Source of the DNA: Azolla caroliniana
Lineage: Eukaryota > Plantae > Polypodiophyta
Direction: 5' to 3'
DNA: 64,000 nucleotides
NCBI GenBank assembly: GCA_043228905.1
Contig: JBHGNT010000013.1
Span: forward strand, 8,370,001 to 8,434,000
In this document: positions 7,287-61,840 of the stretch, in pieces
Position numbering within the stretch: position 1 is the stretch's first letter
Layout: each line of letters begins with the position of its first letter
Made by a program: the position numbers and the translations under genes
The notes under the pieces: model-generated
Databases searched by the model: none
What the model was told of the DNA's origin: nothing
The model's input: only the letters and a program-made list of their open reading frames with translations

Positions 7287-7353
7287 TGCATAGGGCATGA
7301 TTCGAACTCTGCACCTCCACGTTGACAAACCCCAACCTTACCATTACATTAAC
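7287..7353 (-). promoter_or_regulatory. tRNA-like Pol III A/B-box module in Gypsy 1 LTR (second copy 13476-13542)
   Basis: The minus strand reads TAATGTAATGGTAAGG..TTGTCAA..AGTTCGAATC with tRNA-like box spacing, followed by an 8-9 nt T run. Confidence 0.5.
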
Positions 7354-7842
7354 TTATCTTAAGTGTTTTAAATATAGATTTAATACGTATAAGACCTTTA
7401 TTTATGCATACCTTTATTAAAAGGTAAATCGTGTATTTTTTTAATATATGAAAAAGAAAAACACGAGACACTAAAAAATAACTCATGCACATCTAGCGTG
7501 CATGAGCCCTATACTTAGGAAATAAAAAAGCATCACATGCACATTTAGTGGACATGAACACTTTTTGTAAAAAAAAAGCATGAAGCCATGCTTAGCTCTT
7601 CCTTCCTTATATAAGGAGGAGAGAAATATATAAAGGGTTGTTGATTATTTGGATTAAGAATTAATCAATACAAAAATTATTCGTGGGATTCACGATTTAT
7701 ACGTCTACTTCTCTCTTAACACCCTAAGTACCAATTAATATAGTATACTCGTGTGATTCACGAGTTTCTTATCTTTCTCTTTGCTATTTACTCATAATTA
7801 ATCTCTATCTCACGAACTTCTTTCTCCTAGTCCAAGACCTCT

Positions 7843-9969
7843 GTGGTTCCCACCCGACTCACGCAACGATCCGGAGCCGAAAGGCACGACACAGTTGGTG
7901 AACCCGACGTGAAGACGGGTGGCAAGGAGATGGAGGCTCAACAAGCTAACAATATGATGGCGATGTTCGAACGAATGCTTCAAGAACAACGCACGATGTC
8001 GGAGATTTCGGCATCAGTAGAGCGGCTCGTGCAACGCAACGGGCAATTTAATGGTAAGGATGTGTCGCGATATTTGCAGGACTACAAGGCGGAGATGCTC
8101 CGGTGCCGGGCTTCGGAAGGACTGCAAGTGACATCCTTTAACCGGGTGGCGACCGACGGGCTTCAAGGGAGTATCCACGGGTTGGAACAACAAAATCCGA
8201 CGTGGGAAGCATTCGAAGAGGCGTTAAAGACCACGTTTGCCATCGAGGACTCCTCCAAGGCAACGCGGAGGGGATTCGAGGATTGGGTGGAAATGTCAGG
8301 TAAGGGGCTGAAGGTCCTCGAAGTGTTTTCGACATTCGAGTGTCGGTTCGGGAGGTTGTCCGCGAGAGATCAAACTATTCTTGCACCGGACAAAGTCATC
8401 ATGTTTTTGCGAGCTGTGGACGTCCGGGACCGGAAAGATCTCGGAGTGCTTCTTGAGGACACGACCACCGAAAGCGGCCTCACCGAAACATGGGAAAGCA
8501 TGCGGGATATCGTCGCGCGGTACACGAAGAGGGGGCAATGGCTTGCCAACGAAGAAAAGAGGGTTTCGGAACCGATTCCGAAACCGAGAACGGGACTGGA
8601 AGACCATCAACCGAGGGCTCGGGAGATTACGGCCGAGAAGGGAGTCGACGCGTCTACGGTGGAGCAGCTGCTGAAGGAGATGGAGAATCTAAAGATCGCG
8701 ATGGTGAAGAAGTCGGATGACTGCCCCACAAGCTCCAAATATACGGATCGACGGTGCATATGGTGCGATAGCGCCGAACACGATCGGAGGGATTGCGACG
8801 ACCATAAGGAGGCGCTACGACGGGATCTCATCTACTACGAGGGAAACCGGATTCATTCGATGGACTCTCGGAAGCCACTCCGACCGAACTTCCGGAAAGG
8901 CGGCATGAAGAAGGTGCTCGAGGAGGAGTTAGCGGCAAGAAGCAACTATGCGACAACCGCGGGAATATGTGTCGGGGAGTCATCGGGAGCGAAGGCGTCT
9001 TTCTGGCCGGAGGTGCTAGGAAACACCGAGAAAACCGACTCCAACGATATCCGAAACACCGCGGAAGGCGTCCGGGAAGCTACGGGATGGGAGTGCCCTG
9101 TCGACAAGAATAGCATATACGCCCTGTGTCAATTACATGAGGTGTATGTGGACGAGAAACGACGGCGCACGGAGGATGCGGCCGGACCATCGAAGATACC
9201 GGAAAGCTGGAACTCCGGAGGTAAGGGAAAAGAAAAGGCGACTCCGGCATTCAAGCTCGCCTCGGACATAGAACAACAAACCGACTTGAAAAGAGTGTTC
9301 GAGGAAAGAATCTTGGATAGCCGGGTAGATTTTTCGTTGCGGGAACTACTCGGAATAGCGAAGAAGGAGTTTCACGATCTTCTCGTGGATCTCGTGAAAA
9401 GGAAGAGACAAAGTACGGAGGAAATTGCTCCAAGGGTGAATGCAAATACCGTTTCAACGAACGACACCGAAGTGGAAGGCGAAATTCCGAACTCCCACTA
9501 TACAAGGCCACACTGGGCCCGTGCGACTACGGAGACTCCGGTCCGAATCGGCAACATCAAAGAACCCGTGCTAGCATTGATTGATCACGGATCAGAGATC
9601 AACTTGATGTCCAAGGAGTTCTACCGAAAGGGGAAGTGGCCTATAAACACCAACCATGGATGGAAGATTCGGGCAGCCACGAAAACGACAGAAGACCTAT
9701 TTGCGGCTTGTCCGGATGTGATGGTAAAGATCGGGGATGTCGAAATTGACCAAAATTTCTTTGTGCAGGATGAGGTTTCACATTCTGTCATCCTCGGCCA
9801 ACCCTTTATCACAGCTTCACGGATGGAGACGAAGGTGCTCGATAGTGGAGCGGCTTTTGCGCGAATTCGGAGCCAAAACGGAGGGAAATCCGTCCAATTC
9901 CTAACGGTGCCGGCAAATCACGAAAGGAACAAGAGGGAACTCTTGTCCCAAGTGAGAATGGATTTTTAA
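7843..9969 (+). CDS. Gypsy 1 ORF1: gag plus aspartic protease (likely start ATG 7930)
   Basis: Open ~700-aa frame with a CxxCxxxxHxxxxC knuckle (CIWCDSAEHDRRDC) and a protease motif ALIDHGSEINL..VILGQPF. Confidence 0.85.
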   Translation: MVPTRLTQRSGAERHDTVGEPDVKTGGKEMEAQQANNMMAMFERMLQEQRTMSEISASVERLVQRNGQFNGKDVSRYLQDYKAEMLRCRASEGLQVTSFNRVATDGLQGSIHGLEQQNPTWEAFEEALKTTFAIEDSSKATRRGFEDWVEMSGKGLKVLEVFSTFECRFGRLSARDQTILAPDKVIMFLRAVDVRDRKDLGVLLEDTTTESGLTETWESMRDIVARYTKRGQWLANEEKRVSEPIPKPRTGLEDHQPRAREITAEKGVDASTVEQLLKEMENLKIAMVKKSDDCPTSSKYTDRRCIWCDSAEHDRRDCDDHKEALRRDLIYYEGNRIHSMDSRKPLRPNFRKGGMKKVLEEELAARSNYATTAGICVGESSGAKASFWPEVLGNTEKTDSNDIRNTAEGVREATGWECPVDKNSIYALCQLHEVYVDEKRRRTEDAAGPSKIPESWNSGGKGKEKATPAFKLASDIEQQTDLKRVFEERILDSRVDFSLRELLGIAKKEFHDLLVDLVKRKRQSTEEIAPRVNANTVSTNDTEVEGEIPNSHYTRPHWARATTETPVRIGNIKEPVLALIDHGSEINLMSKEFYRKGKWPINTNHGWKIRAATKTTEDLFAACPDVMVKIGDVEIDQNFFVQDEVSHSVILGQPFITASRMETKVLDSGAAFARIRSQNGGKSVQFLTVPANHERNKRELLSQVRMDF

Positions 9970-10006
9970 AGCGGAAGATAAAAGCCAAGGGAACCGGGTA
10001 GTCCCG

Positions 10007-13000
10007 GTGGAATCGGTCGAGATGTACGAGATCGTTGCGAAAATGGGGCCGGATGCGCTCCGCAAAGAAGAAGCAATGGTAAGTACGAAATACAAGACCG
10101 TGGAGAAGAAGGTGAAACCGGCCGCGGGACCACTACCCGCCGATAGCGAACAAAAGAAGAAAGAAGTCTCGGGAGATCCGACACTTCGGAAGTCCGTGGA
10201 TATCGGACATGCCTTCACAAATGAGACCTGGAAGAAACTTCGGATCAGTGGAGGTGGGTTCCTCTTACAAGAAGAAGAAAAACGGTTTCGAGAGATGTTG
10301 GAGCAACATGGCAAAGCATTCGCGTTCACATCGAGGGAGATCGGATGCATTGATCCAAAGATAGTGGAGCCGATGGTGATTTTCACGATTGATCATGTAC
10401 CGTGGAATCTGAAGCCGATTCCGGTGCCACGGGCGCATATTCCGAAAGTCATCGACTTGCTCAAGGAGAAGGTGGCGATGGGGATTCTAGAGCCATCAAG
10501 TGCTCCGTACTCAAATCGATGGTTTACGGTTCCGAAGAAGAATGGGTCACTCCGATTCATCCAAGACTTGCAACCGGTGAACAAGGTCACGATCCGGAAC
10601 TCGGGAGTCGGTCCGATATTGGACGAATTCGCGGAAGCTTTTGCCGGACGTGCGATATACTCCATCGGGGACCTATACTCGGGGTATGACCAATTCCAAC
10701 TAGCCGTGGAGAGCCGAGACATCACTACCATGCGGACACCGATAGGACTAGTTCGAATGTGCACACTACCACAAGGAGCGACAAACTCGGTTGCACATAT
10801 GATGAACGCGATGAACAAGGTGCTTCGAGATTGCATCCCGGAGATAACGATGTCGTTTCTAGATGACATTCCGATGAAAGGATGCGCGGTGGAAGAAAAA
10901 GATGAGACTATGGATGATCGGGGATGCCGAAAGTTCGTGGTCGACCATATTCATGATTGCGAGAAAGTGTTGCGAAAGCTAGAAGATGTGCACCTAACAC
11001 TTTCCGGGGAGAAATCGGCATTCGGGCAAGAAGAAATATTGGTGGTCGGACATCTATGTGGACCCTACGGCCGAAGACCGTCACCAACAAAGATCGATGC
11101 GATTCAAGCTATGAAGGAAGTATGTGAGTCAACATCGGAAGTCCGAAGGTTTCTGGGTGCGTGTGCATTCTATCACATATGGATTCCGCACTATGCACAT
11201 ATAGCGGACCCGCTCTATCATTTGTTGCGGAAAGGTAAGAAATTCGAGTGGAAACCGGAACACACTAAAGCCATGAGGAAGCTCAAGAAGACACTATGAA
11301 GGGCGGAATCACTTAAGAAGCCAAGCTACGAGCGGCCAATCATAGTAACGGTTGATACAAGTCCAACCGGTATCGGGTGGGTCATCAATCAAGCCGACTC
11401 GGATGGTTCGCGGTATCCGATCCGATTTGGAGCAAAGGTCCTCAACGAAAGGCAACGCGGATATGCACAAGTCAAAAGAGAATTGTGGGGAGTCGTGTCG
11501 GCGATAAAATCTGATCGGGATTATTTGATCGGAGCTGAAGTGGTGATCGAGACGGATTGTCTTCCGATACTCGAGATGATGCGGTGTTGTACGATACCGG
11601 ATGTGGCTATGCTAAGGTGGATTGCATATGTCAAGTCACTTAATCCGGAGGTTCGACACATCTCGGGGAAGGACAACGCGGTAGCGGACATGTTATCGAG
11701 GGCGCGGTTTGAAGACGACATAACCGAATCAGATAATGAAGAAGTTTCCGAAGACTACTTCACGTCAGAACACATGTGCCGAGTGAACGTGATCCGAGAA
11801 TTCCGGGAAGAAGAATACGAGGGGGAAACCTTGATGATCGGGAAGATGCTACAAGAGGTCGAGGATTCAACCAATGATAAAGAAAGGAGAGCCGAGATCC
11901 GAAGGAAGAAGAGGCAAGTCCAAAAGTTCTTCTTGGAAAACGGTTTAATATGGAGGACGCCGAAAAGACCGGATGGGATACCACTTCGAGTAGTCGGGAC
12001 GAAAGAGCAACGAAACCGGATAATGTCCGAGTTCCACGAATCCGATTGGGCTGGACATCGAGGAACATGGGCAACTTTTGTGAAAATCAAGCAAAGATAT
12101 TGGTGGAAGAACATGTATAAAGATGTCGCGGAGTTCATAGAAAGCTGCGAGAAATGTCAAGTCTACTCCGGGGTCCGACACCGAGATGAGCTGCATCCGA
12201 CATTCTCACCGACAATCAACTTCAAGTGGATGGTCGACATTGTAGCTATGCCGACCGGGATTGGACAAAAGAAATACTTGGTGTTAGCTCGAGAAGATCT
12301 CACAAACCAAGTTGAAGGTCGAGCGCTTCGGAGGAAAACGTGTGCCGCGGTGTGCCAATTTCTTTTGGAAGAAGTGTTTTGTAGGTACGGCTGCGTAGGA
12401 CAAGTGATTGCGGACCGGGGAGAACTCGACTCCGACAAAGCTAGGGGATTCTTCGCCAAACATGGAGTTCGGTTAACGTTGACAACGGCCTACAATCCGG
12501 AGGCCAACGGGAAGATCGAACGAGGACATAGTCCGATCGTGAAAGCACTTGCGAAGGCATGCGACGGAAGGGTGAAGGATTGGCCACAAATGCTTCCGTA
12601 TGCACTATGTTCGGATCGGACGACGCATAGCTCCGTGACCGGTTACATGCCGGCAGAACTCATGACCGGACAAGCACCAGTAATGCCAACGAAAACCGCA
12701 ATCGCGACATGGGCAATACTACCGTGGAAGGAAGAGATGAGCCGGGAAGACCTACTAGCGGTCCGGATACGACAACTGGAGGGAAGAACGAAAGATGTAG
12801 CGGAAGCGTCACGCCGACAACAAGAAGCACGGTTTCGGAACAAAAGCCGGTTCGACACAAAGCACCGACTACGACCGAGGAGGATTGAAGAAGGAGATTG
12901 GGTGATCGTCTATGATAGTAGCTTGGACCATCAACATACAACGATGCGGAAATTCGCGAAAAGGTGGTTCGGGCCGTACGAGGTTCGGAAGGTCTTCGAC

Positions 13001-13309
13001 AACGGGACGTACCGACTGTCCGAGTTGGATGGAACAATACTACGAGTGCCGATAGCCGGGAAGCGGGTGAAGATTTTCAAGAAGCGGACCGACGACAAAC
13101 CTTATGTGATCCAAGTCGAGGCCGACAACGAGGAGCAATCGGACGAAGACCACAATGATGCGGGAAGCGAAGAAAGTGGATTGCAACTCATAGTCAACAT
13201 AAGGGGAGAATCGGAGGAAGCTTCGGATGAAGACGGATACGAAGAATCAAGAACTTCGGCACATACCGGAGGATGTGCGGGTTTGGAGGGGGCGAGTGTC
13301 GTAGTGTAG
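10007..13309 (+). pseudogene. Gypsy 1 ORF2: RT-RNase H-integrase with one in-frame stop at 11297-11299
   Basis: RT motifs DLYSGYDQF and FLDDI, integrase HHCC (AGHRG..CEKCQ) and GPY/F (WFGPY). ORFs 10007-11299 and 11483-13309 share one frame. No chromodomain; the stop codon lies inside the 3' LTR. Confidence 0.9.
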
Positions 13310-14382
13310 GTTGCACACTATGTGGAGATTATATTTTTGTCCCTCCGGATAGAGAATGGAGTGCTCGGTGAGAACCGGAAGAAAACGGTATACCGGCAAG
13401 GAAGAAAACGGCATACCGGCAAGGAAGAGCCGGATAAAGAGACATAAATGTAAAAAAAAAGGAGATACTCACTACTGCATAGGGCATGATTCGAACTCTG
13501 CACCTCCACGTTGACAAACCCCAACCTTACCATTACATTAACTTATCTTAAGTGTTTTAAATATAGATTTAATACGTATAAGACCTTTATTTATGCATAC
13601 CTTTATTAAAAGGTAAATCGTGTATTTTTTTAATATATGAAAAAGAAAAACACGAGACACTAAAAAATAACTCATGCACATCTAGCGTGCATGAGCCCTA
13701 TACTTAGGAAATAAAAAAGCATCACATGCACATTTAGTGGACATGAACACTTTTTGTAAAAAAAAAGCATGAAGCCATGCTTAGCTCTTCCTTCCTTATA
13801 TAAGGAGGAGAGAAATATATAAAGGGTTGTTGATTATTTGGATTAAGAATTAATCAATACAAAAATTATTCGTGGGATTCACGATTTATACGTCTACTTC
13901 TCTCTTAACACCCTAAGTACCAATTAATATAGTATACTCGTGTGATTCACGAGTTTCTTATCTTTCTCTTTGCTATTTACTCATAATTAATCTCTATCTC
14001 ACGAACTTCTTTCTCCTAGTCCAAGACCTCTGTGGTTCCCACCCGACTCACGCAACGATCCGGAGCCGAAAGGCACGACAACGGTTCATACCGAATCCGG
14101 CCGGACCCGTTCCGGGTTCATCCGATCCGGTTTCCGGATATCCTTCTGGTCTCTCCAATCCGTTTACCTTCTTCTCCGGCTTCTCTGATCCCCATCCGGA
14201 GGGACCAGTATCTCAACAAAGGGGATGTGAGTTACCCCTCCTAGAAACTTACGATGGAATGCCATTTACGAGCCATAGCGGCATCAAAACCATTCAACCC
14301 CCAACTCGTTTTCAAGAGACTTGGATGGAAATGAAACTAGTCCCAACACATAGGCATTTCCTTTATAGAACCTGCTATACCC

Positions 14383-17300
14383 TGTTAGGAATTGACGCTT
14401 TCAAAACCTTCACCTCTCGGCCACAACCGGGGAAACACGAATCAATGCAACAGTAAATCGAAAACACAGAGAGAGACTCGAATGCACAGGGTTTAGCGTG
14501 GAAAACCCTAGACGGGAAAAACCACGGGAGTGCAAGACTCCAACTATCACTATACGCAGGGAATGTACAATGGCGAGCTGCAAGGCGACGACCTTGAGCT
14601 CGCTGTCCTCGCCACAGGCGGCGGTATTACACAGAGGCGTCTACCTCTTCCTTTCTCTCTCTCTCACTCTCTCTCTCTCGGCTGCTCTCACTTCGCTCCC
14701 TCTAAGTGGAAAACAGAAAAATGAGCAACAACTACAAAACTGTTTGCCCTAAGTCATATTTATACACATATGACTTTTGGGCTATTTACAAGTATAGCCT
14801 CGAGGGCCCTTGGCAAACATATTCACAAATATGTCCCCGCATCCGGATCTCTCTCCGGGTACATTCGTCATTCGGCTCCGTAGCCGGGGTCTTCATCATC
14901 CGGATCCGAAACCGGGTCTTCATCATCCGGTTCCGATACCGGGTACTCCTCATTCGGGTCTTCATTCCCGATTCCCGGACATCTGACCATCCCATCCGGA
15001 GGGACCGTAATCCCAACAAACTCCCCCTTCACTTCGGCATGGGATGTCTTTCCAGTCCGACCCTCTTCCGGCACGCTTCCAGCCTGTCGGGTGTGAGCAC
15101 TTTGGTCAGCATATTTGACCCGTTTTCGTCCGTGTGGATCTTCGTCAGCACGAACTCCTGGTCTTCTATCCTTTCCCGGATCCAGTGATATCTTCGCTGG
15201 ATGTGCTTCGTCCGGGAGTGATAGGCCGCGTTCTTCGCAAGGTGGATGGCACTCTGACTGTCGCAGTAGAGTCGGTACTCCTCCTGCCGGATACCGAGCT
15301 CTCTAATGAAGTCCTTCATCCATATTATTTCCTTGCCGGCTTCAACAGCCGCCATGTACTCCGCCTCCGTGGTTGACAACGCAACCGTCTTCTGCAGCCT
15401 CGACTGCCACGAAACAGCTCCCCCTGCATACGTCATCACATACCCTGATGTGGACCGGCTGGTATCTGCATCAGCCGACATATCCGAATCGGTAAAGCCG
15501 TCGAGTTCGGGCTTACCGGAGCCGAATCGGAGGCACACGTTTGCCGTGCCCTTCAGGTATCGGAGTATCCACTTGGCCGCGTTCCAGTGCTCTTTGCCGG
15601 GATTGCTCATGTACCGGCTAACCACTCCGACTGCATATCCTATGTCCGGTCTTGTACACACCATTGCGTACATCAAGCTTCCGACGGCAGAGGCATATGG
15701 TACTTTCATCATGTCCTCCTTCTCAGCGTTTGTCTTGGGGCTTTGCTTGCTGGACAACTTGCAGTTTGCCGGGAGGGTTGACCCGACCGGTCTTGCTTCC
15801 GACATGTTGAACCGGTGAAGCACCTTTGTCACGTACTTCTCCTTTGACAGCCACAACTGCTTCTTCTTCCGGTCCCGGATGATGTGCATCCCTAGTATTT
15901 GCCTCGCCGGACCCAGGTCCTTCATTGAGAAGGTTCGGTGAAGCGCTTTCTTCAGCATCCGTATCTTGACTTGGTCCCGTCCGACGATCAACATGTCGTC
16001 CACGTACAGGAGGAGTATTAGAAAGTCTCCTCCTTCGAACTTCTTCACAAACACGCAGTGATCGGACTGCGTTTTGTGGTACCCTTCGTCGGTCATGAAA
16101 GAGTCGAACTTCCGGTACCATTGCCGGGGAGCCTGCTTCAGTCCGTAAAGGCTCTTCTTCAACCGGCATACCAGGTGCTCCTTCCCTTTCTTCTCGAATC
16201 CTTCCGGTTGCTGCATGTAGATCTCTTCTTCGAGGTCACCGTGAAGGAATGCCGTCTTCACGTCCATCTGTTCTACCTCGAGGTCCATGCTTGCCGCTAT
16301 GCTCAGCACCGTCCGGATGGAGGTCATCTTCACTACCGGGGCAAATATCTCGTCGAAGTCGACGCCCTTCTTCTGCTGGAACCCCTTCACCACGATCCTG
16401 GCTTTGTATCTCGGGGGGTTTCCGGCATCTCCCGGTTTCAGCTTGAACACCCACTTGTTTCGAAGTGCCCGCTTTCCTTTCGGCAACTCCACAAGTTCAT
16501 ATGTGTGGTTCTCATGCAGGGAATCCATCTCCTCCTGCATGGCACTTAACCACCTGCGGCTATGGGTGTCAAGCTTTGCTTCTTCAAAACTCTCCGGCTC
16601 CCCCTCGTCGGTTAGCAGCACGTGCTCTGGTTCCGGAAATCTCCGGGGGGCCCTTCTCTCTCTTAGAGGATATCTCCGTTCCGGAGCTTCGGTAACCGGC
16701 TCCTCCGTTTCCTCTTCATCCGAATCCATTTCGGGATCGGGGCCGGTTCCGGTATCAGTTTCATCTTCCTCGGCCGGTTCTGTTTCTTCACCGTCTTCGG
16801 CCGGATCCTCGAGTGCTAACCGGTCCCTTGCCGGTCGGGACTGCTCCTCGTAGAGTTGATCCTCACCGGTCGACTTGGAGCTCTTCATCTTCTTCTCCGA
16901 CTCCCAGTCGGCTAGTGTCTTGTCCTCCATGAAGATGATATCACGACTCCGGAATATCTTCTTGTCGACCGGGTCCCATACTCGGTAGCCGAACTCGTCA
17001 TCGCCGTAACCGAGGAATATGCATGGCCGGGTCTTTGGATCTAGCTTTCCTCTCCGGTCCTTTGCCACATGCACATATGCGAGACACCCGAACACCTTCA
17101 GATGCCGGTAGGATACTTCCCTACCGGTCCACATTCTCTACGGCGTGTCTCCGTCCAAAGGTACTGAGGGTGATCTGTTTATCACGTATGTCGCCGTCGA
17201 CATTGCCTCAGCCCAAAACCCCTTGGGTAATTTCGCATGCGCCAGCATACTCCGGACCCTCTCCATTATGGTCCGGTTCATCCTCTTGGCCAGCCCGTTC

Positions 17301-19768: not shown

Positions 19769-19813
19769 TACCCTATAACGTCATGCCCAAACTCTTTAAA
19801 TTTGTTTATTTAT

Positions 19814-21454: not shown

Positions 21455-21673
21455 ACCACACACACACACACACACTCTCTCTCTCTCTCTCTGAGTCTGC
21501 CCACCTGCTACTTAAACAGGCCCCCGTCCTTGCTGCCTTTCTCATCATCATCATACATCAAAGTATTCGCTGCATCATAGATAGATAGATAGATAGATAG
21601 GTAGATAGATAGATAGAAGCCATTGATATATTTACATAGGGAGTGGGAGAGGGAGAGGGAGAGGGAGAGGGAG
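21455..21673. repeat. Microsatellite cluster (CA)n, (CT)n, (GATA)n, (GGGAGA)n in the PME promoter/5' UTR
   Basis: Simple repeats are directly visible. Confidence 0.9.
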
Positions 21674-21675
21674 GC

Positions 21676-22278
21676 ATGGCGTTATCCATGAGCTCAGTGC
21701 TGGCATCATGGTTGTTATGTATCATCCTTGTGGTTGTGGTTGTGGTTGTGGCTGTTGATGGCAACAGGGTGGTACCTCAGAGCTTCGATGGGTGGGTCGA
21801 GGAGGAGGTGAGAGGTTACCAGCCGGACAACCACGACACAAACTTTAGGCAGATCCTGAAAGATAGCCAAAAGAAGGCCTATCACCTGTTCCCCAGGCGT
21901 TCATTGGCCACTGCAGCCGCCAACAGCACTACCAGCCCCACAGTCATCGTGGTAGCCAAGGATGGTTCCGGCAATTTCCGGAAGGTGCAGTCGGCTATCA
22001 ACAGCGTGCCCACTCTAAACACCAAACGTGTGATTATCTACGTCAAGAACGGCATCTACAACGAGAAGATCGTTATCCCCTCCGGCAAGAACTTCATCAC
22101 ACTCAGAGGCCAGAGTGCGGCCGGCACTTACCTCCAATGGAGCGACACCGCTTATGCTCTCGACAAGAATGGACAGCCCCTCGGCACGTATGCCAGTGCC
22201 TCGGTCGCCATTGAAGCCAACGACTTCATCGCCACCAGCATTTCCTTCAAGGTACCCAAAAAAAGAAAAACAATCCAC

Positions 22279-22327
<49 letters not shown>

Positions 22328-23080
22328 CATCCACACCTTTTATCCATTCTCGCTTTTAACTATATAACTTACTTACATCCTCCTCTCCACATACTATACT
22401 ATACTATGCTAGAACACTGCTCGCCACCCGGCCCCAGGTGCAGTGAACAAGCAGGCAGTCGCTCTCCGAGTACAAGGTGACAGGGTAGCTTTCTACAACT
22501 GCAGCTTCTACGGCGCTCAGGGCACTCTTTACGATAAAGAAGGTCGCCATTACTACAACAATTGCTACATCGAGGGCTCCATCGATGTCATCTTTGGAGA
22601 TGCCCGCTCTCTCTTTTTTGTATGTAGCTATAACTGTTGTAAACTCATCAATATCAATGAATTAATCAAATGAGGCTTATAATTTTCCCCGTGTTGTTTG
22701 TTTCCTTCCTTCTCTGTCCAGGGATGCCAGATTCACTCCATCGCCACTACCTATGGTTCCATCTCGGCACAAAAACGTTTGTCGGCAGCTTCCAACACCG
22801 GCTACTCCTTCGTGTCGTGCACTGTGACTGGCACTGGCTCCATCTACCTTGGAAGAGCCTGGGGTGCCTACTCCCGCATTGTCTTCGCCTACACCAAGCT
22901 TGCCAACATCATCCGGCCCGAGGGCTGGGACGACTTCGGTGTCCCCGCAAGTCAAAAGTGAGTTTGCCTCCTCTCCCCCCCCTGCCATTATTCCACTCTT
23001 CTTCTTCCGGCATATATGTACATATATGTTTCCACCATTATTCGAGTCTTCTTCTTCCTCCATATACATATACTGTACTG

Positions 23081-23114
<34 letters not shown>

Positions 23115-27087: not shown

Positions 27088-28713
27088 TGTCATGAAGACA
27101 TACATTTTGGCCTTACAAAGATTCGAGCCCAAGACGTGTTCGTCTATATGTTAGACCTTTAACCATTATAATAACATATATGATGTATAATTATAATAAA
27201 TGTATTATTAGTTATTACAAGATATTTAGAGTATTCTACAACATTCTAGGATATTCCATGATTATATTAAATATCATACATATCTAAAATATTCTAGAAC
27301 ATTCTAGAATACTCCATAAGGACCTATAAATAGGTGTCTATTCATTTATCACAACTCATTTAGTTCAACACCAGTTTGTAGCCCCTTAGCCTACTCTTTG
27401 TAATCCTTGCTCTCTTATAATATAACCTCTCTTTCCATTTCTAGTGTTCTGTGTGTGTGTGTGTGTGTGTGTGTGTACGTTCTAAAGTCATCTTATCTTT
27501 CTCTCTCCTATTCTCAAGTCTCGATAGTTTGAACCGAATATCTCTCTTTTCTTCTTCTTATATTAACCTTATTCAAGAAAATCTAGCAATTTTCTCTCAT
27601 AACTATGGAGTCCGTCAGCAAGCAAGAATATATGTGTGTTCTCTCCGAGCTCGACATGCTAACAACCAAATTTGTGGCACTGGAGCATGAAAATCAAAGA
27701 TTTTTGGGAGACCTACAACAAGTAAGTGTTGAGAAAGTACAACAGTATGAAGAATTATCTCAACAGGTGCATCAATTAGAGACTACTCTATTGCAACGAC
27801 AAGCGGCGGAAGTTCAAACCTTGCCGAAGGAACCCAAGATTAGTCTGCCCGCCAAGTTTGATGGTACAAGGTCTCAATTTTGTGGATTTTTAAATCAGGT
27901 ATGGTTTGTGATTAAATTGCATCCTAGCCGTTATCCAACTAATGTTGCTCATGTGGGACTAGTTGCTACCTTGTTAACGGGTACCGCATTTGCGTGGTTT
28001 GCACCACTCTGAGAGAAGCACTCACCATTATTAAAAGATTTTGAAGGGTTTATTAATGAGTTCCAAGCCAAATTTGGAGACACCGATAGTATGAGGACAG
28101 TAATAATCAAAATTCGATGATTACGACAAGGAGATCGTCGTGCTTCCGCTTATGCTGCAGATTTTCGCCTTCTAGCATTGATATTCCATGGGACGAGGCA
28201 GCGTTAATGGATCAATTTCGTCAAGGTCTGCGCAATGATGTGAAGGATTTACTTCTTACCTTCCATGATGATCCAAAATCTCTTACTGAAGTAGTAAGTC
28301 GGGTCGTGCAATGTGACAATCGCTTATTTGAGCCCCATTTTGAGCGCCAACAAATGTTACGCTTCTGATCAACAGAAACATATGCTTCGGTGGTCGCAAC
28401 TCCACCCCAAGTATCAAAGTCAAGTGTGGTGGAAGGCCCTACTCCACAATGGAAATCGAGACAACATGACATTGAGGACCATTATCGGATGCTGAAAGCA
28501 ACGACGACGAGCGAATTGTGTATGCCTCTATTGTGGTGGTCCTGGGCATACTGTTGTGACTTGTCCACATAAACCACGACGACAAGTTAACCAAGTGCTC
28601 ATGACAATTCCAGCTCAATTTTTGCTCCGCCTTCTCGTAACCCAAGTAGGCCTAGTAGTCCCATAGTCGAGACTTGAGAATAGGAGAGAGAAAGATAAGA
28701 TGACGATAGAAGG

Positions 28714-43700: not shown

Positions 43701-46131
43701 GCATTCACCCTTGGAGCGTTCTCCTCCGTACTTTGGCTTTTTCTCTTCACGAGGTCCAAAAGAAGATCATGGAACTCCTTCGCTATTCCAAGTAATTCTC
43801 GAAGCGAAAAATCTACCCTGCTATCGAGGATTCTCTCCTCGAACACCTTTTTCAAGTCCGTTTGTTGTTCGATGTCCGAGGCGAGCTTGAATGTTGGAAT
43901 CATCTTTTCTTTTCCCTTACCTCCAGAGTTCCAGCTTTCCGGTGTCTTCGATGGACTGGCCGCCTCATCCGTACGCCGTCGCTTCTCATCTACATACACT
44001 TCATGCAATTGGCATAAAGCAAACACGCTATTCTTATCGACGGGGCACTCCCATCTCGTAGCTTCCCGGATGCCTTCCGCGGTGCTTTGGATCTCGTTAG
44101 AGTCGGTTTTCTCGGTGTTTTCTAGCACTTCCGGCCAAAAAGACACCTTTGATCCCGATGACTCCCCGACACGTATTCCCGCGGTTGTCGCGTAATTGTT
44201 CTTCGCTGCTATTTCCTCCTCTAGGATCTTCTTCATGCCGCCTTTCCGGAAGTTCGGTCGGAGTGGCTTCCGAGAGTCCATTGAATGAATCCGATTTCCC
44301 TCGTAGTAGATAAGATCCCGTCGTAACGCCTCCTTGTGCTTGTCGCAATCCCTCTGATCATGTTCGGTGCTATCGCACCATATGCATCGACGGTCCATAT
44401 ACTTGGAACTTGTGGGACGGTCATCCGACTTCTTCACGATCGCGATTTTTAGATTCTCCATCTCCTTCAGCAACTGCTCCACCGTAGTTGCATGGATTCC
44501 CTTCTCAGTCGTAGCTTCCCGAGCCCACGGTTGATGGTCTTCCGATCCAGATCTCGGTTTCGGAATCGGTTCCGAAACCCTCTTTTCTTCGTTGGCAAGC
44601 CATTGCCCCCTCTTTGAGTATCGCGCGACGATATCTCGCACGCTTTCCCATGTCTCGGTGAGGCCACTCTCGGTATTCGTGTCCTCTAGAAGCATTCCAA
44701 GATCGTTTCAGTCTCGGACATCTACGGCTTGTAAGAACATGATAACTTTGTCCGGTGCGAGGATAGCTTGATCTCTCGCAGACAACCTCCCGAACCGACC
44801 TTCGATTGCCGAAAACACATCGAGAACCTTCATCCCCTTGTCCGGCGTTTCTACCCAATCCTCGAATCCTCTCCGCGTTGCCTTGGAGGAGTCCTCGATA
44901 GCGAACGTGGTCTTTAGCGCCTCTTCAAACGCTTCCCACGTCGGATTTTGTTGTCGTAGCCCGTGGATACTTGCTTGAAGCCCGTCGGTAGCCACCCGGT
45001 TGAAGGATGCCACTTGCAGTCCTTCTAAAATCCCACATCATAGCATTTCCGCCTTGTAGTCCCGAAGATAGCGTGATACGTCCTTTCCGTTGAGCGGCCC
45101 GATCTGGTGCACGAGCCGCTCTACTGCCGCCGCTATCTCCGACATCGCACGTTGTTCCTGAAGCATCCACTCGAACATCATCATCATGTTGTTAGCCTCC
45201 GGTTGATTTTCCATCTCCTTGCCACCGGTGTTCATGTCAAGGTCACCACTTGTGTCGTGCCTTTCGGCTCCGGATCGTTGCGTGAGTCAGGTGGGAACCA
45301 CTAGGGTTTTCGACTAGGAGGAAAGAAAATTCTAAGGCAATTAAGAATGTGAAATATATTGTAGGAATGAAAGATATGAAAAACTCGTGAATCCCACGAG
45401 TATAGTGTATTAGTGAGTACTCAAATTTAGAGAGAAAAATAGTTAGCAAATTCGTGGATCCCACGATTATATTATATTAATCAACCCTTGTAAAATAATC
45501 AACAACAACTATACATCATTCTCTCTTCCTTATATAGTGTTGGAAGAGTTTAAGTTTATCACATGCAAGCATCATGCTTTTCCTATCTTTAGTTTTCATG
45601 CACACTACATGTGCATTATTAGCTTTCTATCTCATCTTTTCTTTTAACTCGAGTGTCTATGCATGAATAACTTTTTGTACCATGCATGTCTAGAAATTTT
45701 ACATGGGATAAATTTTAGTATAACTTTAAAATTCATAATACGCTAGTATAATGATAAGGCTTAACATTATTAACATGGAGGTGCAAGGTTCGAATCTTGC
45801 CCTATGCATGTAATATATAATTTTATACTTTCTTCTATTTACAAATATGTCTCTTCATCTGATGAGAGACTCTCACCGGCCTTCTTCATCTGGCTCTTGC
45901 CGGTTTTGCTTCATCCGGTTCTCATCGATTTTCTTTATCCAGTTCTTACCGATCCTCTTCGTCCGTTTCTCACCGACTCTCACCGGCCTTCTTCATCCGG
46001 CTCTTGCCGGTCTCCTTAGCAGTTTCGGTCCTCACCGGTTCTTCCTTCCGGTTCACACTGGGTACTCCATATCCTATCTGGAGAAACCAAAAATGTAATT
46101 TTTCACGTAGTGCGCGAATTACACTACAACA
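40739..46131 (-). mobile_element. tRNA-Trp-primed Gypsy element 3: 5' LTR 45253-46131, gag-PR, RT-RH; integrase deleted; 3' LTR remnant 40739-~40961
   Basis: ORFs 43280-45235, 41952-43040 and 41184-41933 are highly similar to Gypsy 1 proteins. Degenerate PBS TGGTGACCTTGACATGAA at 45231-45248. The LTR remnant matches ~45705-45919. Confidence 0.9.
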
Positions 46132-48335: not shown

Positions 48336-48861
48336 TGTTATAGTCATATGTATCAACAATGTTGTATGGTCTTGGTCATATTTGAACTCGAGACCTCGAG
48401 AAAAAATGCATTAAACACTTGAGCTAACTAAATAGGTTTCTCATGTTGAATATTTAATGTTTTATGCGTATAAGAGATATGTGAGGCATTTGCTCATATC
48501 TGTTTTTTTAAAAGAAACATATATGTCATTATTTCCCCCTCATTTACCACTGTAAACTATGTTGGTACATTACCTATCCTCAAGTCTCGCGCCAAAGTGT
48601 AACCTAATGGTCAAGCCAAATGAGCCCTCTTTTCGTAGTAGGCCCACATGGCCCATCACATGGTTATGTCATTACGAATGCCTTTCGTAAGAATGATCTC
48701 ATGGTGGCATCGTATCCATGTAATGAGGGAGGGATGTTAGATATGTGTGTCCTAGAAGCGACCTCACATGAAGTGGGTCAACCCCTACGTTCTCACCATC
48801 ATTGTGGCTATGATCGTTTCGTTACGTAAAGAAATCGAAGTGACCAACGGGGATGTCAACA
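48336..48861. mobile_element. Possible solo LTR or SINE-containing repeat with an antisense tRNA-like A/B box (48373-48436)
   Basis: TGTTATAG..TGTCAACA termini; the minus strand reads TAGCTCAAGTG..GAGTTCAAAT. No clean TSD. Confidence 0.3.
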
Positions 48862-49313: not shown

Positions 49314-49356
<43 letters not shown>

Positions 49357-49789: not shown

Positions 49790-51362
49790 GCTTCTCCGAG
49801 TTCCTTCATCGCAAACTTGTGATGAAGGCTCCGCTTCAACTTTCCGATATCTGCTTGATTACTTCCTGCAGTCAGCATGTCGTTAACATATAGGATCAAG
49901 TAAATTTACATACATGTGTTGGAGTCTATTCGGAGGTATCCAAGCTACCTGATGTAGGAGTCGAACTTCTGGTACCACATCCTCAACGCTTGTTTCAATC
50001 CATAAAGGCTTTTCTTCAGTCGACATACGAGGTGGCTTTCATTCCCCGTCGTTGTGAAGACGATGGGTTGAGACATGTAAATGTCTTCTACCAGATCTCC
50101 ATGTAGGAATGTCGTTTTTACGTCTATATGCTAAAGCTCTAGATCTTCTGTCGCCACAACTCCAAGTAGGAGTCAGAGAGTGGTCATCTTAACTACTCGT
50201 GAGAATATCTTGTCATAGTCAACCCCATATTCTTGTTTGAATCATTTTGCGACGAGCCGAGCTTTTTACTTGGGTTTGTTTGAGTCAAATACATATTTGT
50301 GTCAGAAAACCCATTTGCAAGGTAGCGGCCTTCTTCCAAATGGTAGTTCAACCAGCTCCTGTGTCTAATTCTTGTGAATGGAGTCCATTTCGGATTTCAT
50401 GGCTTGTACCCATGTATCAGCGTCCGGCGCAATAAAAGCTTCTTCATATGTGCTGGATTCGCCTGCATTGGTGTAATGGACATAGTCAAGGCCTAGTTGA
50501 TAAAACTTTGTTGGCCTCTGTGCTTGTCCAACTCTCCTGGGTGCTGAAATGAGTGTCATGACGGGTTTCTCCGAGTTCCTTCATCACAAACTTTTCATGA
50601 TGGCTCCGCTTTAGCTTTCCAATATCTGCTTGATGACTTCCTCCAATCAACATGTCGTCGATATATAGGATCAGGTAAATCCTAGACTCCTCGGCCAGTT
50701 GCCAAATCTACATACATGTGTCGGAGTCTGATCGGCGGTATCCAAGCTGCCTCATGTAGGAGTCTAACTTCTGGTACCACATCCTCAACGCTTGTTTCAA
50801 GCCATAAAGGCTTTTCTTCAGTCAACATACAAGATGGATTTCCTTCCCAGTCGTCGTGAAGTTGGTCAATTGAGACATGTAAATGTCTTCTTCCAGATCT
50901 CCGTGTAGGAATGTCGTCTTTACATCTATATGCTCAAGCTCTAGATCTTCTATCGCCACAACTCCAAGTAGGAGTCGGAGGGTGGTCATCTTAACTACTG
51001 GTGAGAATATCTCCTCGTAGTCGACCCCACATTCTTGTTTGAATCCTTTTGCGATGAGCCGAGCTTTGGCTTGGGTTTGTCTGAGTCAGATACATATTTG
51101 TATCAGAAAACCCATTTGCAAGGTAGCGGCTTTCTTCTAGCTAGTAGTTCAACTAGCTCCTGTGTCTAAATCTTCTGAATCGAATCCTTTTCAGATTTCA
51201 TGGCTTGTAGCCATGTATCGGCGTCTAGTGCGGCAATAGCTTCTTCATATGTGCTAGATTCGTCGGCATCGGTGTAATGGACCTAGTCGAGGCCTGGTTG
51301 ATGAAACTCTGTTGGCCTTCGAGCTCGTCTAGATCTCTTGGGTGCTGAAATGAGTGTCATGA
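49790..51362. repeat. Tandem duplication of ~780 bp of Copia D RT (49790-50562 vs 50565-51362)
   Basis: Both copies start TTCTCCGAGTTCCTTCATC and end GGGTGCTGAAATGAGTGTCATGA. Confidence 0.88.
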
Positions 51363-51652
51363 TATGGAAAGATTCAAACCCATGACCTTTTGTTACATGG
51401 GTCGAACCCTTGGCATTAGACTATATATTGTAATACGAAGGATATTATTTTCATTGATTATTTCACTATAGAAAATTGATGTATATTTCCAGATTTCTTT
51501 GGAACATTCTAGAAACTTTAGGAGTACTCCTGAAAACACTAGAAAAGGAGGCACAAGGCATTATGTCGAACCAAATAGGTTTAACGCCAGTCTTAAGCCT
51601 CAGTCATTATTGTACTTACTCTTCATATAAGATATTATATCTTTTGTTATCA

Positions 51653-51690
<38 letters not shown>

Positions 51691-53059
51691 CATGAGTTCT
51701 ACACCCTTTTCTCTCTCTTAGTACTAATTCTCCGCTTTTAGTACTAATTCCCTCTCTTTCTTAGTACTGTTCCTAATAGTTTGAACTGATTTCGCCTCAT
51801 CCTCTTACCCCTCCTTCCTGTCATACTAATCCTCTTATCCTCCCTAGTAAAATGGCAACTTTTAGCGCTCAGGAGTACCAATCTGTTTTCTCGGAGCTTC
51901 AGTGCTTAGAGAAGTTTGTAGCACTAGAACAAGAAAATCATAGTCTTTTGGGGGATCTTCAACAAATAGCTTTAGAAAAACAACAAGAACACGGGGAGCT
52001 GACGTTAGTGTACAACAACTTGAAGTGACTATTGTATCACTACAACAACAAGGATCAAGTGCTCAAGGGACTCACAAAGAACCCAAGATCGGACTTCTTA
52101 TGAAATTTGATGGGGCCCGATCACAGTTCAGAGGTTTTCTTAATCAGGTACGCTTAGTGATTCAAATGCATCCTTCTCAATAGCTCACTGATGCATCACA
52201 AATGGGACTAGTTGACACGCTACTTAGTGGCACAACTTTGGCATGGTTCGCCCCCCTCTAAGATAAAAACTCTCCCTTGTTAAATAATTTCGAAGAGTTT
52301 ATTAGTGAGTTTACGCTTGGCTTATGTTGCGGATTTCCGTCTTCTCATGACCGATATTCTCTGGGATGACCAGACATTAATGGAGCAATTTCATTTTGGC
52401 CTATGTATTGATGTCAAGGATTTACTTTTAACTTTCCCCGAAGAGCCAAAGTCATTGACAGAAGCAATCAGTCGCGTGGTGCGATGCGATAACCGCCTTT
52501 TCGAACGACGTTGGGAACGTTAGTTCCAGATGCCAAGTACAAGATCAGAGCCCACCTATGCCTTAGTTGTAGCAAAACCTTTTCCAAGGGAGTCATATAA
52601 TGTCTCTCCAGCAAATACTCCAACTCGGATGGAAATTGACACCACACATCATCGCGGACCATTATCGGAAGAGGAAAAGCAGCAACGCCGAGCAAATTGA
52701 CTATGTCTCTATTACGGTGGACCAAAGCATATTGCGATGAGTTGTTCCCATAGGCCAAGAAGACAGGTAAACCAAATAGTCGCTAGTTCTAATTGTACTA
52801 AACCCGAGGCTATTTTAGTAGGAATATCTGATAATCCTAATAGTACTAGAAGAAGAGTTAAATGATTAAGCCCAACCAAAATAGGAGCCGTTTGGTTGGA
52901 CAACCCTAGATCTGTGTAGCCCATTAGTGGTTCCATTTCCTCTAAGCAAGCTAGCAATGTGTTCTTAGCAAGTAATGGTTAGTACTAAAAATATTCCTCC
53001 AGTACATGTCTTAGCACTCTTAGATTCTGGAGCCAACTCTTGCTTTATGGATAGGAATT

Positions 53060-56000: not shown

Positions 56001-58390
56001 CTAAGAGCCGGTTAACACTCGAGGAACCAGCCGATTACAGTGTGGATACCGAACCGGCAGAAGAAGAAGTAGAGGAAGCTGAAACCGGAACCGGCCAAGA
56101 CCCCGAATCGGATTCGGATGAAGAACAAATAGAGGAGCCGGTTGCCGAAAGCCAAAGACAGAGATATCCTCTCAGAGAGAGAAGGCCCCCCCGGAGATTT
56201 GCGGATGCAGAGCATGTGCTGCTGACCGATGAGGGGGAGCCGAAAAGCTTCGAGGAAGCTAAAAGTGATGCCCATAGCCGCAAATGGTTAAGTACCATGC
56301 AGGACGAGATGGATTCCTTGCATGAGAACCACACATATGAATTGGTGGAGTTGCTGAAAGGAAAGAGGGCACTCTGAAACAAGTGGGTGTACAAGTTGAA
56401 ACCGGGAGATGCCGACAACCCTCCAAGGTACAAAGCCAGGATGGTGGTGAAGGGGTTCTAGCAGAAGAAGGGCGTGGACTTCGACGAGATATTTGCCCTG
56501 GCAGTAAAGATGACGTCTATCCGGACGGTGCTGAGTATAGCGTCAAGTATGGACCTCGAGGCAGAGCAGCTATATGTGAAGACGACATTCCTTCACGGTG
56601 ACCTCGAAGAGGAGATCTACATGCAGCAACCGGAAGGATTCGTGGAGAAAAGGAAGGAGCACCTGGTTTGCCGGACTGAAGCAGGCTCCCCGACAATGGT
56701 ACCGGAAGTTCGACTCCTTCATTACCGACCAAGGGTATCACAAAACGCAAACCGATCACTGCGTGTTTGTGAAGAAGTTCGAAGGAGGCGACTTCCTGAT
56801 ACTCCTTCTGTATGTGGACGACATGTTGATCGTCGAACGGGACCAAGCCAAAATACGGATGCTGAAAAAAGGCTCTCAACCGAACTTTCTCAATGGAAGA
56901 CTTAGGCCGGCAAGACAAATACTGGGATGCACATCATCCGGAACCGGTCAAAGAAGCAATTGTGGTTGTCATAGGAGAAATACGTGACAGAGGTGCTTCA
57001 GCGGTTCAACATGTTAGAAGTGAAACCGGTTGGATCGACACTCCCGGCAAACTGCAGATTATCCGGTAAGCAAAGCCTGAAGACGAAAGCAGAGAAGGCG
57101 GATATGGTGAAGGTTCCATATGCCTCTACCGTCGGGAGCTTGATGTACGCAATGGTGTGTACTCGGTCGGATATTGGATACGCAGTCAGAGTGGTGAGCC
57201 AGTTTATGAGCAATCCCAGCAAGGAGCACTAGAACGCGATCAAATGGATACTCCGGTACTTGAAGGGCACTTCGAATATGTGTCTCCGATTCGGCTCTGG
57301 TAAACCTCAACTTGACGGTTTTACCGATTCAGATATGTCGGCTGATGTGGATACCAGCCGGTCTACATCCAGGTATGTAATGACATATGCAGGGGGAGCT
57401 GTTTCGTGGCAGCCAAGGCTGCAGAAGACGGTTGCGTTGTCAACAACGGAGGCGGAGTACATGGCGGCTGTTGAAGCCGGCAAGGAAATATTATGGATGA
57501 AGGAATTCATCGGAGAGCTCGGTATTTGACAAGATGAATACCCGCTCTATTGCGACAGTCAAAGTGCCATCCACCTTGCTAAGAACGCAGCGTACCATTC
57601 CAGGACGAAGCACATCACACGTACTAGGTATCACTGGATCTCGGAGCGAGTAGAAGATCGAGAGTTCGCGCTGACAAAGATCCACACGGCTGAGAATGGG
57701 TCAGATATGCTGACCAATGTACTGATACCCGACAAGCTGGATGCATGTCGGAAGCGAATCGGACTAGCAAGACATCCCATGCCCGAGTGAAGCGGGAGTT
57801 TGTTAGAAAATAGGTCCCTCCAGATGGGAAGTGAGAAGAACCAGATGACGAGTACCGGACAATGGAAGACCCGGTGAGAACCGGATGTTGCAGGCCCGGT
57901 AGGAACCTCTCATCGGATGGAACGGACATATATGTAAATATGTTCTGCAGAGCCCACTGAAGCTATATTTGTAAATAGGTCGAAAGTCATATTAGTATAA
58001 ATATGACCTAGGGCAAACTTGATAGAGATGATGTAGAGTTGGTTGTGCTATTATCGTTGTGACGATAATTCAGAGCGCAACTGTGTACAGAGAAGAGAGA
58101 GAGAGAGAAAGAGGTTGTTGCCTCTGTTGTAACCGCCTTGTGGCGAAGCGAGGGAGCAAGAGGTCATTGCCTCTGTGCCCCATTGTTGTAATCTTGATAT
58201 TGTGATATTTTGCAGTCAGAGGGCTGTCGTGGTTTTTTCCCAGATTTGGGTTTTTTCCACGTTAACATCCAGTGCACTCTCTTCTTTACTGTTTCGTGTG
58301 TAGATACATCTCACCACATCCCAGTTTTCTGTGATTGATCCGACGTCTCGGTTGTGGCCGAGCATAGCTTAAGAAACCGTATTCCTATCA
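53060..58390 (+). mobile_element. Tnt1/Tork-like Copia element E, LTRs 53060-53768 and 57801-58390, TSD GAATT
   Basis: GAATT at 53055-53059 and 58391-58395. PBS T(A)GTATCAGAGC at 53773-53784; PPT GAAGCGGGAG. Gag-PR-INT ORF 54149-56377 and a disrupted RT-RH to 57790. Confidence 0.95.
53097..53265. repeat. 40-bp tandem repeat, 4 copies in the Copia E 5' LTR versus 1 copy in its 3' LTR
   Basis: GAAC(C/T)GGATG..GGAAGA..GTGA units account for the 709 vs 590 bp LTR length difference. Confidence 0.88.
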
Positions 58391-61300: not shown

Positions 61301-61775
61301 ATCGGGTATGGCTATTACGACGATACATCAAGACTACTCGCCCATGCGATAAATTGGATTATCGGCGATTGAGTCCTTTCCGTATTATCGGAAAAATTAA
61401 TGATGTTGCTTTTCATCTCGATCTACCTCAATAACAACGGATAGATCCGATATTTCATAGTTCTCTTCTAGAACCCTATCAGGATAGAACTATCCCAAGT
61501 CGTATCAACCCACCTCCACCGCCGATCGAACTTGAAGATGGACCTGAGTACGAGGTTGCCGCCATCCTCGATTCTAAGATTGTTCACAACAAGCTCTACT
61601 ATTTGGTCGATTGGCTAGGATATAAGCCCTAGAGAGCGTACTTGGGAACCAATAGAGAATGTGACCAATGCTCATGCTCTTCTTGAAGACTTCCATCGTT
61701 AATATCCAGACAAACCGGTTCCTCAATCTAAAATGACTCGTAACACTCGTCGTTTTAAAGGGGGGATAGTGTCAT

Positions 61776-61840
61776 GATATGGCAAGATTCAAACCCATGA
61801 CCTTATGTTACATGGGTCAAGTCCTTGCCATTAGACTATA
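61776..61840 (-). promoter_or_regulatory. tRNA-like A/B-box module at the U3 end of the Tcn1-like LTR (also 51361-51424)
   Basis: The minus strand reads TAGTCTAATGGCAAGG..GGTTTGAATC, with the B box starting 43 nt after the A-box start as in tRNA genes. Confidence 0.55.

Follow-up and report, generated by a model that had tools for sequence, protein, structure and literature searches.

Putative RNA polymerase III (Pol III) promoter cassettes mark Gypsy retrotransposon long terminal repeats (LTRs) in a 64,000-nt stretch of the Azolla caroliniana genome (contig JBHGNT010000013.1, positions 8,370,001 to 8,434,000; hereafter the window). The window is a nested LTR-retrotransposon cluster with one pectinesterase-like gene. 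What appears to be new here is the residence of such cassettes, apparently tRNA-derived, in LTRs of autonomous, full-length, recently active Gypsy elements. Each cassette, or module, couples an A box to a B box at tRNA-like spacing, the layout of type-2 (tRNA-type) Pol III promoters. The reading we favour, to which we give an even chance, is that the cassette would be a DNA site for TFIIIC (with TFIIIB), holding the element's own RNA polymerase II (Pol II) promoter open.

Nine modules were identified in the window. Modules antisense to Gypsy 1 lie on the minus strand at 7287-7358 (A box 7351-7341, B box 7308-7298; profile score 42.8) and, in the 3' LTR, at 13476-13547 (A box 13540-13530, B box 13497-13487). 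One module is antisense to the T2 element (27107-27180, minus strand; A box 27173-27163, B box 27129-27119; offset 44, leave-one-out score 21.9). Gypsy 2 modules are in sense orientation, on the plus strand of the 5' LTR (32816-32888; A box 32823-32833, B box 32866-32876), where T runs precede the TATA box, and of the 3' LTR (40273-40345; A box 40280-40290, B box 40323-40333). Those antisense to Gypsy 3, also on the plus strand, are found in a 3' fragment (40771-40843; A box 40778-40788, B box 40821-40831) and in the 5' LTR (45737-45809; A box 45744-45754, B box 45787-45797). Modules antisense to the T1 element reside on the minus strand, at the outer LTR end (51358-51430; A box 51423-51413, B box 51380-51370), in a decayed copy, and in the 3' LTR (61773-61845; A box 61838-61828, B box 61795-61785). 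The B box of both T1 copies is non-canonical (TTTGAA).

A prediction made earlier from the letters of the window alone (the original prediction) had listed seven A/B-box modules, and all seven are present where it placed them, with the A-to-B offset of 43-44 nt that it had noted (43, and 44 for the module at 27108-27173). The A box of the copy at 51361-51424, read there as ending in GG, is actually TAGTCTAATGC. A Gypsy 3 copy was put at 40775-40841: the module is there, on the plus strand, but within a cut LTR fragment (40740-40964). The two sense modules of Gypsy 2 (32823-32876, 40280-40333) had been overlooked, and antisense orientation, taken as the rule, does not hold for 7 of 20 non-redundant modules. 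Gypsy 1 and Gypsy 3 had been called unrelated; their proteins are 84-86% identical, and their LTRs are alike at 69-71% in three blocks, one containing the module. Gypsy 2 proteins are 45-69% identical to those of Gypsy 1, and the three elements form a single lineage with a DUF4100 gag. The proposal that the cassette is common to chromoviral and non-chromoviral lineages stands, T1 and T2 being Tcn1-like and Gypsy 1 to 3 Phygy-like.

The window was scanned with generic A and B box patterns, at A-to-B offsets of 43-47. Up to 2 mismatches, 7 matches were found, versus 0 in each of 12 local dinucleotide shuffles; up to 3 mismatches, 13, versus a shuffle mean of 0.83. Spaced matches are not equally frequent in shuffled DNA, an objection that the original prediction had foreseen. 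When the offset was left free (28-69 nt), the best A box was found at 43/44 for all nine modules. A weight matrix (profile) was built from 20 non-redundant modules, which have leave-one-out scores of 19.6-48.4. In the window the nine module sites score 33.9-43.7, and one other site exceeds 10 (11.8). All nine strong matches are inside Gypsy LTRs, and the profile scan found no module in the four LTRs of Copia 2 and 3 or in the LTR at ~930-1470. At scores of at least 18 the profile matched 0 of 252,326 coding positions and 0 of 420,330 shuffled-LTR positions. A degenerate match to the variable-loop side and B box, with a weak A box at offset 38, was observed on the minus strand at 48378-48435 (score 17.0), ~400 nt upstream of a chromovirus-type gag; shuffles give 0-2 similar scores each at threshold 14.

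Conserved boxes, tRNA residues and flanks

Conservation is centred on the boxes. Averaged over the 20 non-redundant modules, information reaches 1.13 bits for the A box, 1.38 for the B box and 0.93 for the variable-loop side, falling to 0.31 in the middle spacer and 0.17 just downstream; identity outside the boxes averages 0.31. In nine disjoint pairs of homologous modules, differing positions are 9/108 in the box core and 1/36 in the motif AGGT, versus 66/171 in the spacer, 80/180 in the 20 nt downstream and 86/180 in the 20 nt upstream, and boxes are thus more conserved than flanks, as the original prediction implied. AGGT, a variable-loop motif absent from the search pattern and corresponding to tRNA positions 44-47, is exact in 16 of the 20 modules; the tRNA residues T33, A38 and A21 are kept in 13, 15 and 15, respectively. 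Because these residues are kept, we infer that the cassette descends from a real tRNA, and the identity originally proposed for the boxes, as tRNA-derived type-2 promoter elements, is supported. The cassette looks like a selected, widespread feature, presumably under purifying selection inside the LTR. B-box variants among 29 modules (TTCAA in 13, TTCGA in 9, TTTGA in 4, other in 3; rows not independent) hint that the tolerated form of CpG decay is the one favoured.

Outside the boxes, T1 and Gypsy 3 modules are more alike than shuffles (spacer p ~0.01, downstream p 0.002), for a pair chosen by eye, and the best ungapped non-box identity of T1 to any module is 0.47. A common ancestry of Tcn1 and Phygy-like cassettes is unsupported, given the choice by eye of this pair and identities not above 0.47.

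The tRNA fold has not been kept. Cloverleaf pairing in the 20 modules amounts to 56/140 in the acceptor stem, 41/80 in the D stem, 42/100 in the anticodon stem and 26/60 in the outer T stem, and none of the four exceeds row shuffles. ARAGORN found 0 genes in the window; on 29 modules it gave 0 at default settings, 2 matches at ps90, and mixed isotypes below (relaxed settings without a shuffled control). No Rfam tRNA match was found in the window or in 6 loci. A functional tRNA gene was therefore rejected, stems being at shuffle level, the anticodon inconsistent and default ARAGORN and Rfam tRNA calls absent. The tRNA-Asp identity originally suggested for Gypsy 1 was dismissed, because anticodon columns are unconserved and isotypes mixed.

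Flanks are A-rich 5' and T-rich 3' in the module's own direction in 19 of 20 modules, whichever the orientation. The 50 nt upstream are 60-86% AT and A-skewed, and no column clearly stands out; plant type-2 Pol III genes feature an upstream TATA and then CAA, as described in PMC3082873. Four consecutive T residues (T4) occur within 45 nt downstream in 12 of 20 modules, as against 2 of 20 upstream; the same letters predict 10.7, and the downstream T run noted in the original prediction is not supported as a specific signal. The longest A run 65-300 nt downstream measures 2-5 nt in 23/23 modules, and 10-nt direct repeats flank 3/23, with no consistent target site duplication (TSD). Insertion of a SINE2 (a tRNA-type short interspersed element) is not supported on these grounds, namely the missing A-rich tail in 23/23 and the rarity of the repeats, and single-copy SINE insertions, the alternative that the original prediction had allowed for, are not borne out. 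Sense modules located after the TATA box in two loci (L014:775-880, L061:6985-7110) feature 10-nt repeats around a tRNA-sized unit; these are possibly TSDs of a tRNA retrocopy.

For 9 of the 17 antisense modules that are TATA-proximal, T2 among them, the A box and the TATA box are 151-165 nt apart; TATA boxes were assigned by pattern, and locus L010 is counted at its second TATA match. Outside this range are the Gypsy 1 clade (207-274) and T1 (116). Motifs resembling the RY element (CATGCA) are found between cassette and TATA box (window 7480-7590; U3 of module-bearing loci), and are denser in LTRs with the cassette (11) than in those without (26; Mann-Whitney p 0.006, rows not independent). 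RY motifs are linked to B3 factors.

Spread among related elements

Loci were chosen by integrase, independently of the boxes: a search with an integrase alignment gave 80 loci from metagenome contigs, the best among 264 confirmed ones, and genome contigs contributed 4 more. The LTR start was located in 65 of 86 sequences (the 84 loci and two window elements), and 42 clusters were formed at 90% nucleotide identity of the integrase, 39 of them assessable because an LTR stretch of 300 nt or more, or else a module, was available (3 are too short). The cassette was found in at least one member of 15 of the 39 assessable Phygy-like clusters. Its usual place is U3, ahead of the TATA box, and it may point either way; some LTRs have it behind the TATA box as well. 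The 20 non-redundant modules are divided into 13 antisense and 7 sense, and Phygy-like modules lie ~50-540 nt from the LTR end. Two or three cassettes per LTR are found in L014, L028, L056, L061 and L063, as whole tandem duplications in L014 and L061/L063. In the U3 of L056 and L063, the half made of variable loop and B box is also tandemly duplicated without the A box.

An integrase tree of 47 rows requires 9 changes for the label 'none', 7 of them forced by starred branches. The tree labels L008 'none', yet the 5' LTR of this locus holds a module; another 19 loci that have an LTR start or an integrase match are absent from the tree, being near-copies or too short. The 5' LTR of L065 and the 3' LTR of L021 have 312 nt in common at 98%. 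The L065 LTR is a mosaic, its ends resembling L027 and its middle block, cassette included, L014; L004, L028 and L047 have one U3 block in common despite distant integrases. Part of the patchy distribution would appear to be due to U3 exchange between families, single cases being unsure as assemblies can be chimeric. Other profile matches of at least 14 in the 435 kb of loci fall in LTR-like contexts where inspected, except three weak ones (14.3-14.7), and no free dispersed copies outside LTRs were recognised in the 64 kb plus the 435 kb chosen around integrase.

Public sequencing runs extend the picture. The Gypsy 1 module is covered by public-run contigs under three organism labels. In the most distant run (share 0.20), coverage takes in the module with its 5' flank but leaves out the CCGG repeats at 7143-7266. 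Evidence on Tcn1-type elements comes from the window and public-run contigs, with no independent Tcn1 loci. In the B box of T1, the canonical C accounts for 93%, 85% and 98% of depth at 61791 under three organism labels; the T1 copies of the window, which are decayed, read T where Tcn1-type contigs mostly read this C. Along Tcn1-type LTRs the summed depth drops ~100-fold in the anticodon arm; at loose ends, intact A boxes of divergent families are seen. No relative was found in three viral-contig scans.

Some loci deserve separate mention. A weak antisense module (L038:1150-1210; 17.6) was observed where a Copia 3' LTR starts, downstream of RNase H and the polypurine tract (PPT), and the cassette may reside in some Copia families too. 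In L005 the LTR is directly followed by primer-binding site (PBS) and gag, an arrangement expected of tandem arrays, circle junctions or collapsed assemblies. Phygy-like integrase DNA in L081-L084 lies within two prokaryote genome records, and is likely plant contamination.

Candidate roles of the cassette

Constraint on the boxes, their spacing and a few adjoining bases, together with a spacer free to vary, stems that are lost, no fixed orientation and copies in tandem, makes up the pattern of a protein-binding DNA site. A and B boxes are bound by TFIIIC, which brings in TFIIIB upstream, as reported in PMC3082873 and PMC10781861. According to PMC8136502, TFIIIC at B boxes is frequent in chromatin boundary regions, and PMC10781861 describes trypanosomatid small nuclear RNA (snRNA) genes controlled by upstream tRNA-like A/B boxes. 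In the favoured reading, TFIIIC would be recruited by the B and A boxes of the cassette, and TFIIIB loaded on its AT-rich 5' flank. A nucleosome-free or boundary patch would then form, with flanking chromatin on one side and the TATA box on the other; in many families the DNA from antisense cassette to TATA box (151-165 nt) would amount to about one nucleosome. Located on the outer side of the Pol II promoter of the LTR, the patch would shield or prime this promoter, and a short Pol III RNA might be made as a by-product. Replication of the element would still depend on Pol II, given a length of 6-10 kb, a TATA box in the element itself and cassettes that mostly face away from the internal region.

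Several points weigh against the TFIIIC reading. The kept A box, the fixed spacing and the tRNA-gene-like flanks fit a transcribed unit as well as they fit a barrier. Conservation of the boxes is partly circular, modules having been picked by box match, although AGGT and spacing are free of this circularity. The B box reads TTTGA in 4 of 29 modules, the A box of G3 has lost one G, and the T1 B box lies 15 nt from the LTR end, in a region constrained for integration anyway. The 151-165 nt spacing was noticed post hoc, several of the nine modules share U3 ancestry, and the Gypsy 1 clade departs from it. The cassette is dispensable, being absent from 24 of 39 clusters and, within the window, from all four LTRs of Copia 2/3. 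The loci are for the most part collapsed contigs of metagenomes from few assembly series, possibly chimeric and not independent samples of species, and the LTR of L022 resembles that of L077, which could be one such chimera.

The cassette could instead be a working Pol III gene, selected for its RNA of ~85-110 nt, which might serve, for example, as an antisense RNA to the U3 end of the genomic RNA, as a small-RNA source or as a decoy. This we consider rather unlikely, even if it would account for both boxes and their spacing, for the A-rich and T-rich flanks of 19/20 modules, for the excess of T4 downstream over upstream, and for the T runs that precede the TATA box in the sense copies of L005 and Gypsy 2. 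A few modules fold well (T1 z -4.5, L074 z -4.9; mean -1.15 over 20), and the Pol III microRNA (miRNA) units in the U3 of foamy viruses provide a precedent (PMC3993851). However, the modules have no RNA sequence or structure in common, and both orientations occur, which excludes antisense RNA as a product of all cassettes; T4 is no commoner than the letters predict, and 8/20 modules have none within 45 nt. Patchiness, decayed copies, free orientation and the repeats around tRNA-sized units (two of the three, in L014 and L061) are also what one would expect of neutral relics, that is heads of SINE families or tRNA retrocopies hitchhiking in LTRs, the box pattern being a product of SINE evolution; Kojima proposes a SINE insertion at the origin of the TRIMp3 group (PMC10886601). 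Relics are nevertheless improbable, since boxes and AGGT change ~5-14 times less than spacer and flanks in homologous LTR pairs, spacing is fixed at 43/44, A runs are short and TSDs inconsistent, entire cassettes have been tandemly duplicated, and the profile matches inspected at other places are LTR-like bar three.

A role in integration, as a landing pad for retroelements that target Pol III genes or by recruiting TFIIIC to cDNA ends and so guiding insertion, appears very doubtful. Tcn1-type B boxes lie 10-30 nt from the LTR end, and one break, at 40740, is 38 nt upstream of an A box. Against this, no insertion of an element is seen just upstream of any of the nine window modules, Phygy-like modules may lie hundreds of nucleotides inside the LTR, nested insertions of this window hit coding regions, and no cluster of loose ends is seen at the predicted start among 21 of 558 rows. 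Least credible of all is that the cassette drives the genomic RNA of the element by Pol III, as in Cassandra and as proposed for Helenus: 7/20 modules are sense and some follow the TATA box, but 13/20 are antisense, sense U3 copies run into T stretches, and the elements are long, protein-coding and have kept their TATA box. Kojima argues that autonomous elements must use Pol II (PMC10886601).

A bolder extension of the TFIIIC reading is tentatively entertained, at less than even confidence. The cassette may be traded among autonomous Gypsy families of non-seed plants, even between chromoviral and non-chromoviral ones, as a mobile insulator, a form of counter-defence that would resist silencing from a position one nucleosome upstream of the Pol II promoter, and sometimes on both sides of it.

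Small-RNA-derived Pol III promoters in LTRs are known for miniature non-autonomous elements, in which they are thought to make element RNA. Helenus elements, the TRIMp3 group of TRIMs (terminal-repeat retrotransposons in miniature), are non-autonomous, measure 311-1263 bp, and have a promoter proposed to make the element RNA (Kojima 2024, PMC10886601). They resemble the LTRs described here in the tRNA-derived sequence, the conservation centred on boxes A and B, the lack of a predicted functional tRNA and the patchy distribution, and one plant family is given for Selaginella in PMC10886601. In contrast, the present carriers are 6-10 kb Gypsy elements with gag, reverse transcriptase, RNase H, integrase and TATA box, and their cassettes are mostly antisense (13/20), found in both orientations and in tandem, sense U3 copies being followed by T runs. 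Assignment to TRIMp3 was rejected on autonomy and orientation, boxes A and B being nonetheless located in the LTR. According to PMC10886601, 'not a few' Repbase LTRs contain tRNA-like sequence, but TRIMs only were analysed, and autonomous elements are expected not to share the Helenus-type LTR design. Cassandra TRIMs likewise feature a captured Pol III promoter in a plant LTR; this is a 5S type-1 promoter, however, in a non-autonomous element whose own RNA it drives (PMC10886601).

The nearest autonomous case is simian foamy virus, an LTR retroelement whose U3 contains Pol III units with A and B boxes, located upstream of where Pol II starts; expression falls when the boxes are mutated (PMC3993851). 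These units make conserved hairpin miRNAs, as reported there, whereas no common hairpin or product was seen here; unlike them, the present cassette has tRNA residues, exact tRNA spacing and variable orientation. Boundaries made by TFIIIC at B boxes, those made by B2 SINEs, and the trypanosomatid snRNA boxes are similar in that a tRNA-like box pair acts, as DNA, on an adjacent promoter or chromatin domain (PMC8136502, PMC10781861). As described in these sources, they differ in belonging to host genes or free SINEs of animals, yeasts and protists, not to an LTR beside its own Pol II promoter. The accessible text of the Phygy and Tcn1 account (PMC6317226) mentions no Pol III cassette in their LTRs. 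A literature search found no account of autonomous Gypsy elements of plants (Phygy, Tcn1) with tRNA-like promoters in their LTRs; such notes may exist in subscription journals, in Repbase or in the PMC10886601 supplements.

If TFIIIC does bind, the cassette would give retrotransposons a cis-acting means to keep a promoter open in heterochromatin, and plants would have, to our knowledge, their first natural set of candidate TFIIIC barriers. Ready controls would be at hand in sister families that have or lack the cassette. Many tRNA-like false calls and TFIIIC sinks are predicted in bryophyte and fern genomes. The finding also illustrates the movement of U3 blocks between families.

Carrier elements and other features of the window

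According to Neumann (2019; PMC6317226), Phygy is a clade of short, non-chromoviral plant Ty3/gypsy elements with a preference for NCGN targets, and Tcn1 a clade of chromodomain elements without a tRNA PBS, found in non-seed plants. Gypsy 1 to 3 are called Phygy-like because of their NCGN targets, a placement by features. A 4-bp TSD with NCGN preference, no chromodomain match and short size are all observed. The 5' LTR of Gypsy 1 (7109-7891, plus strand; TATA ~7607, PBS directly after) is preceded by the TSD ACGG (7105-7108), the coding region (gag (DUF4100)-reverse transcriptase-RNase H-integrase) spans 7831-13309 on the same strand and gave no chromodomain match, and the 3' LTR (13297-14080, plus strand) is followed by the same ACGG (14081-14084). 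The two LTRs are 99.7% identical, and named relatives of the reverse transcriptase come from Riccia, Adiantum and Calypogeia. Left target sites are ACGA for Gypsy 2 and GCGT for Gypsy 3. Gypsy 2 has a 5' LTR at 32572-34358 (plus strand; TATA ~32958, PBS 34364) and a 3' LTR at 40030-40621 (plus strand), cut at 40621. Gypsy 3, on the minus strand, is represented by a 5' LTR at 45253-46131 (TATA ~45537) and by the 3' LTR fragment at 40740-40964, cut on both sides.

T1 and T2 are probably chromovirus-type and Tcn1-like, as placed by features: a chromodomain-like reading lies ahead of the T1 PPT, and no tRNA-type PBS was seen after the T1 5' LTR. A self-priming complement of T1, sought with one 9-nt word, was not found. 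The T1 5' LTR (51355-51775, plus strand; end approximate) is preceded by the TSD ATGAG (51350-51354); the 3' LTR (61770-62184, plus strand) follows the chromodomain-like reading and PPT, and is bordered by ATGAG at 62185-62189. The T2 LTR spans 27088-27520 (plus strand; end approximate), with a TATA box at ~27324. Close relatives of the adjoining integrase (29490-30104) bear PF00385, the next named matches being a lizard protein and several Ustilago proteins.

The 1.8-kb Gypsy 2 LTR contains a 105-bp tandem array (5.8 copies, 33456-34103). The segment 40619-40964 is a complex deletion joint, in which the cut Gypsy 2 3' LTR is followed by 120 nt of filler identical to 63661-63780, and then by the cut Gypsy 3 LTR piece, which contains the module and has its break 38 nt upstream of the A box. 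CCGG-rich U3 repeats of Gypsy 1/3 (7150-7270, 45850-46090) resemble the U3 of Copia 2/3 (14800-15000, 57810-57960) in weak blastn matches (70-76% over 55-92 nt, E ~0.01), hinting at a possible sharing of U3 across superfamilies. The pectinesterase-like reading frame, at 21640-22359, is surrounded by retrotransposons.

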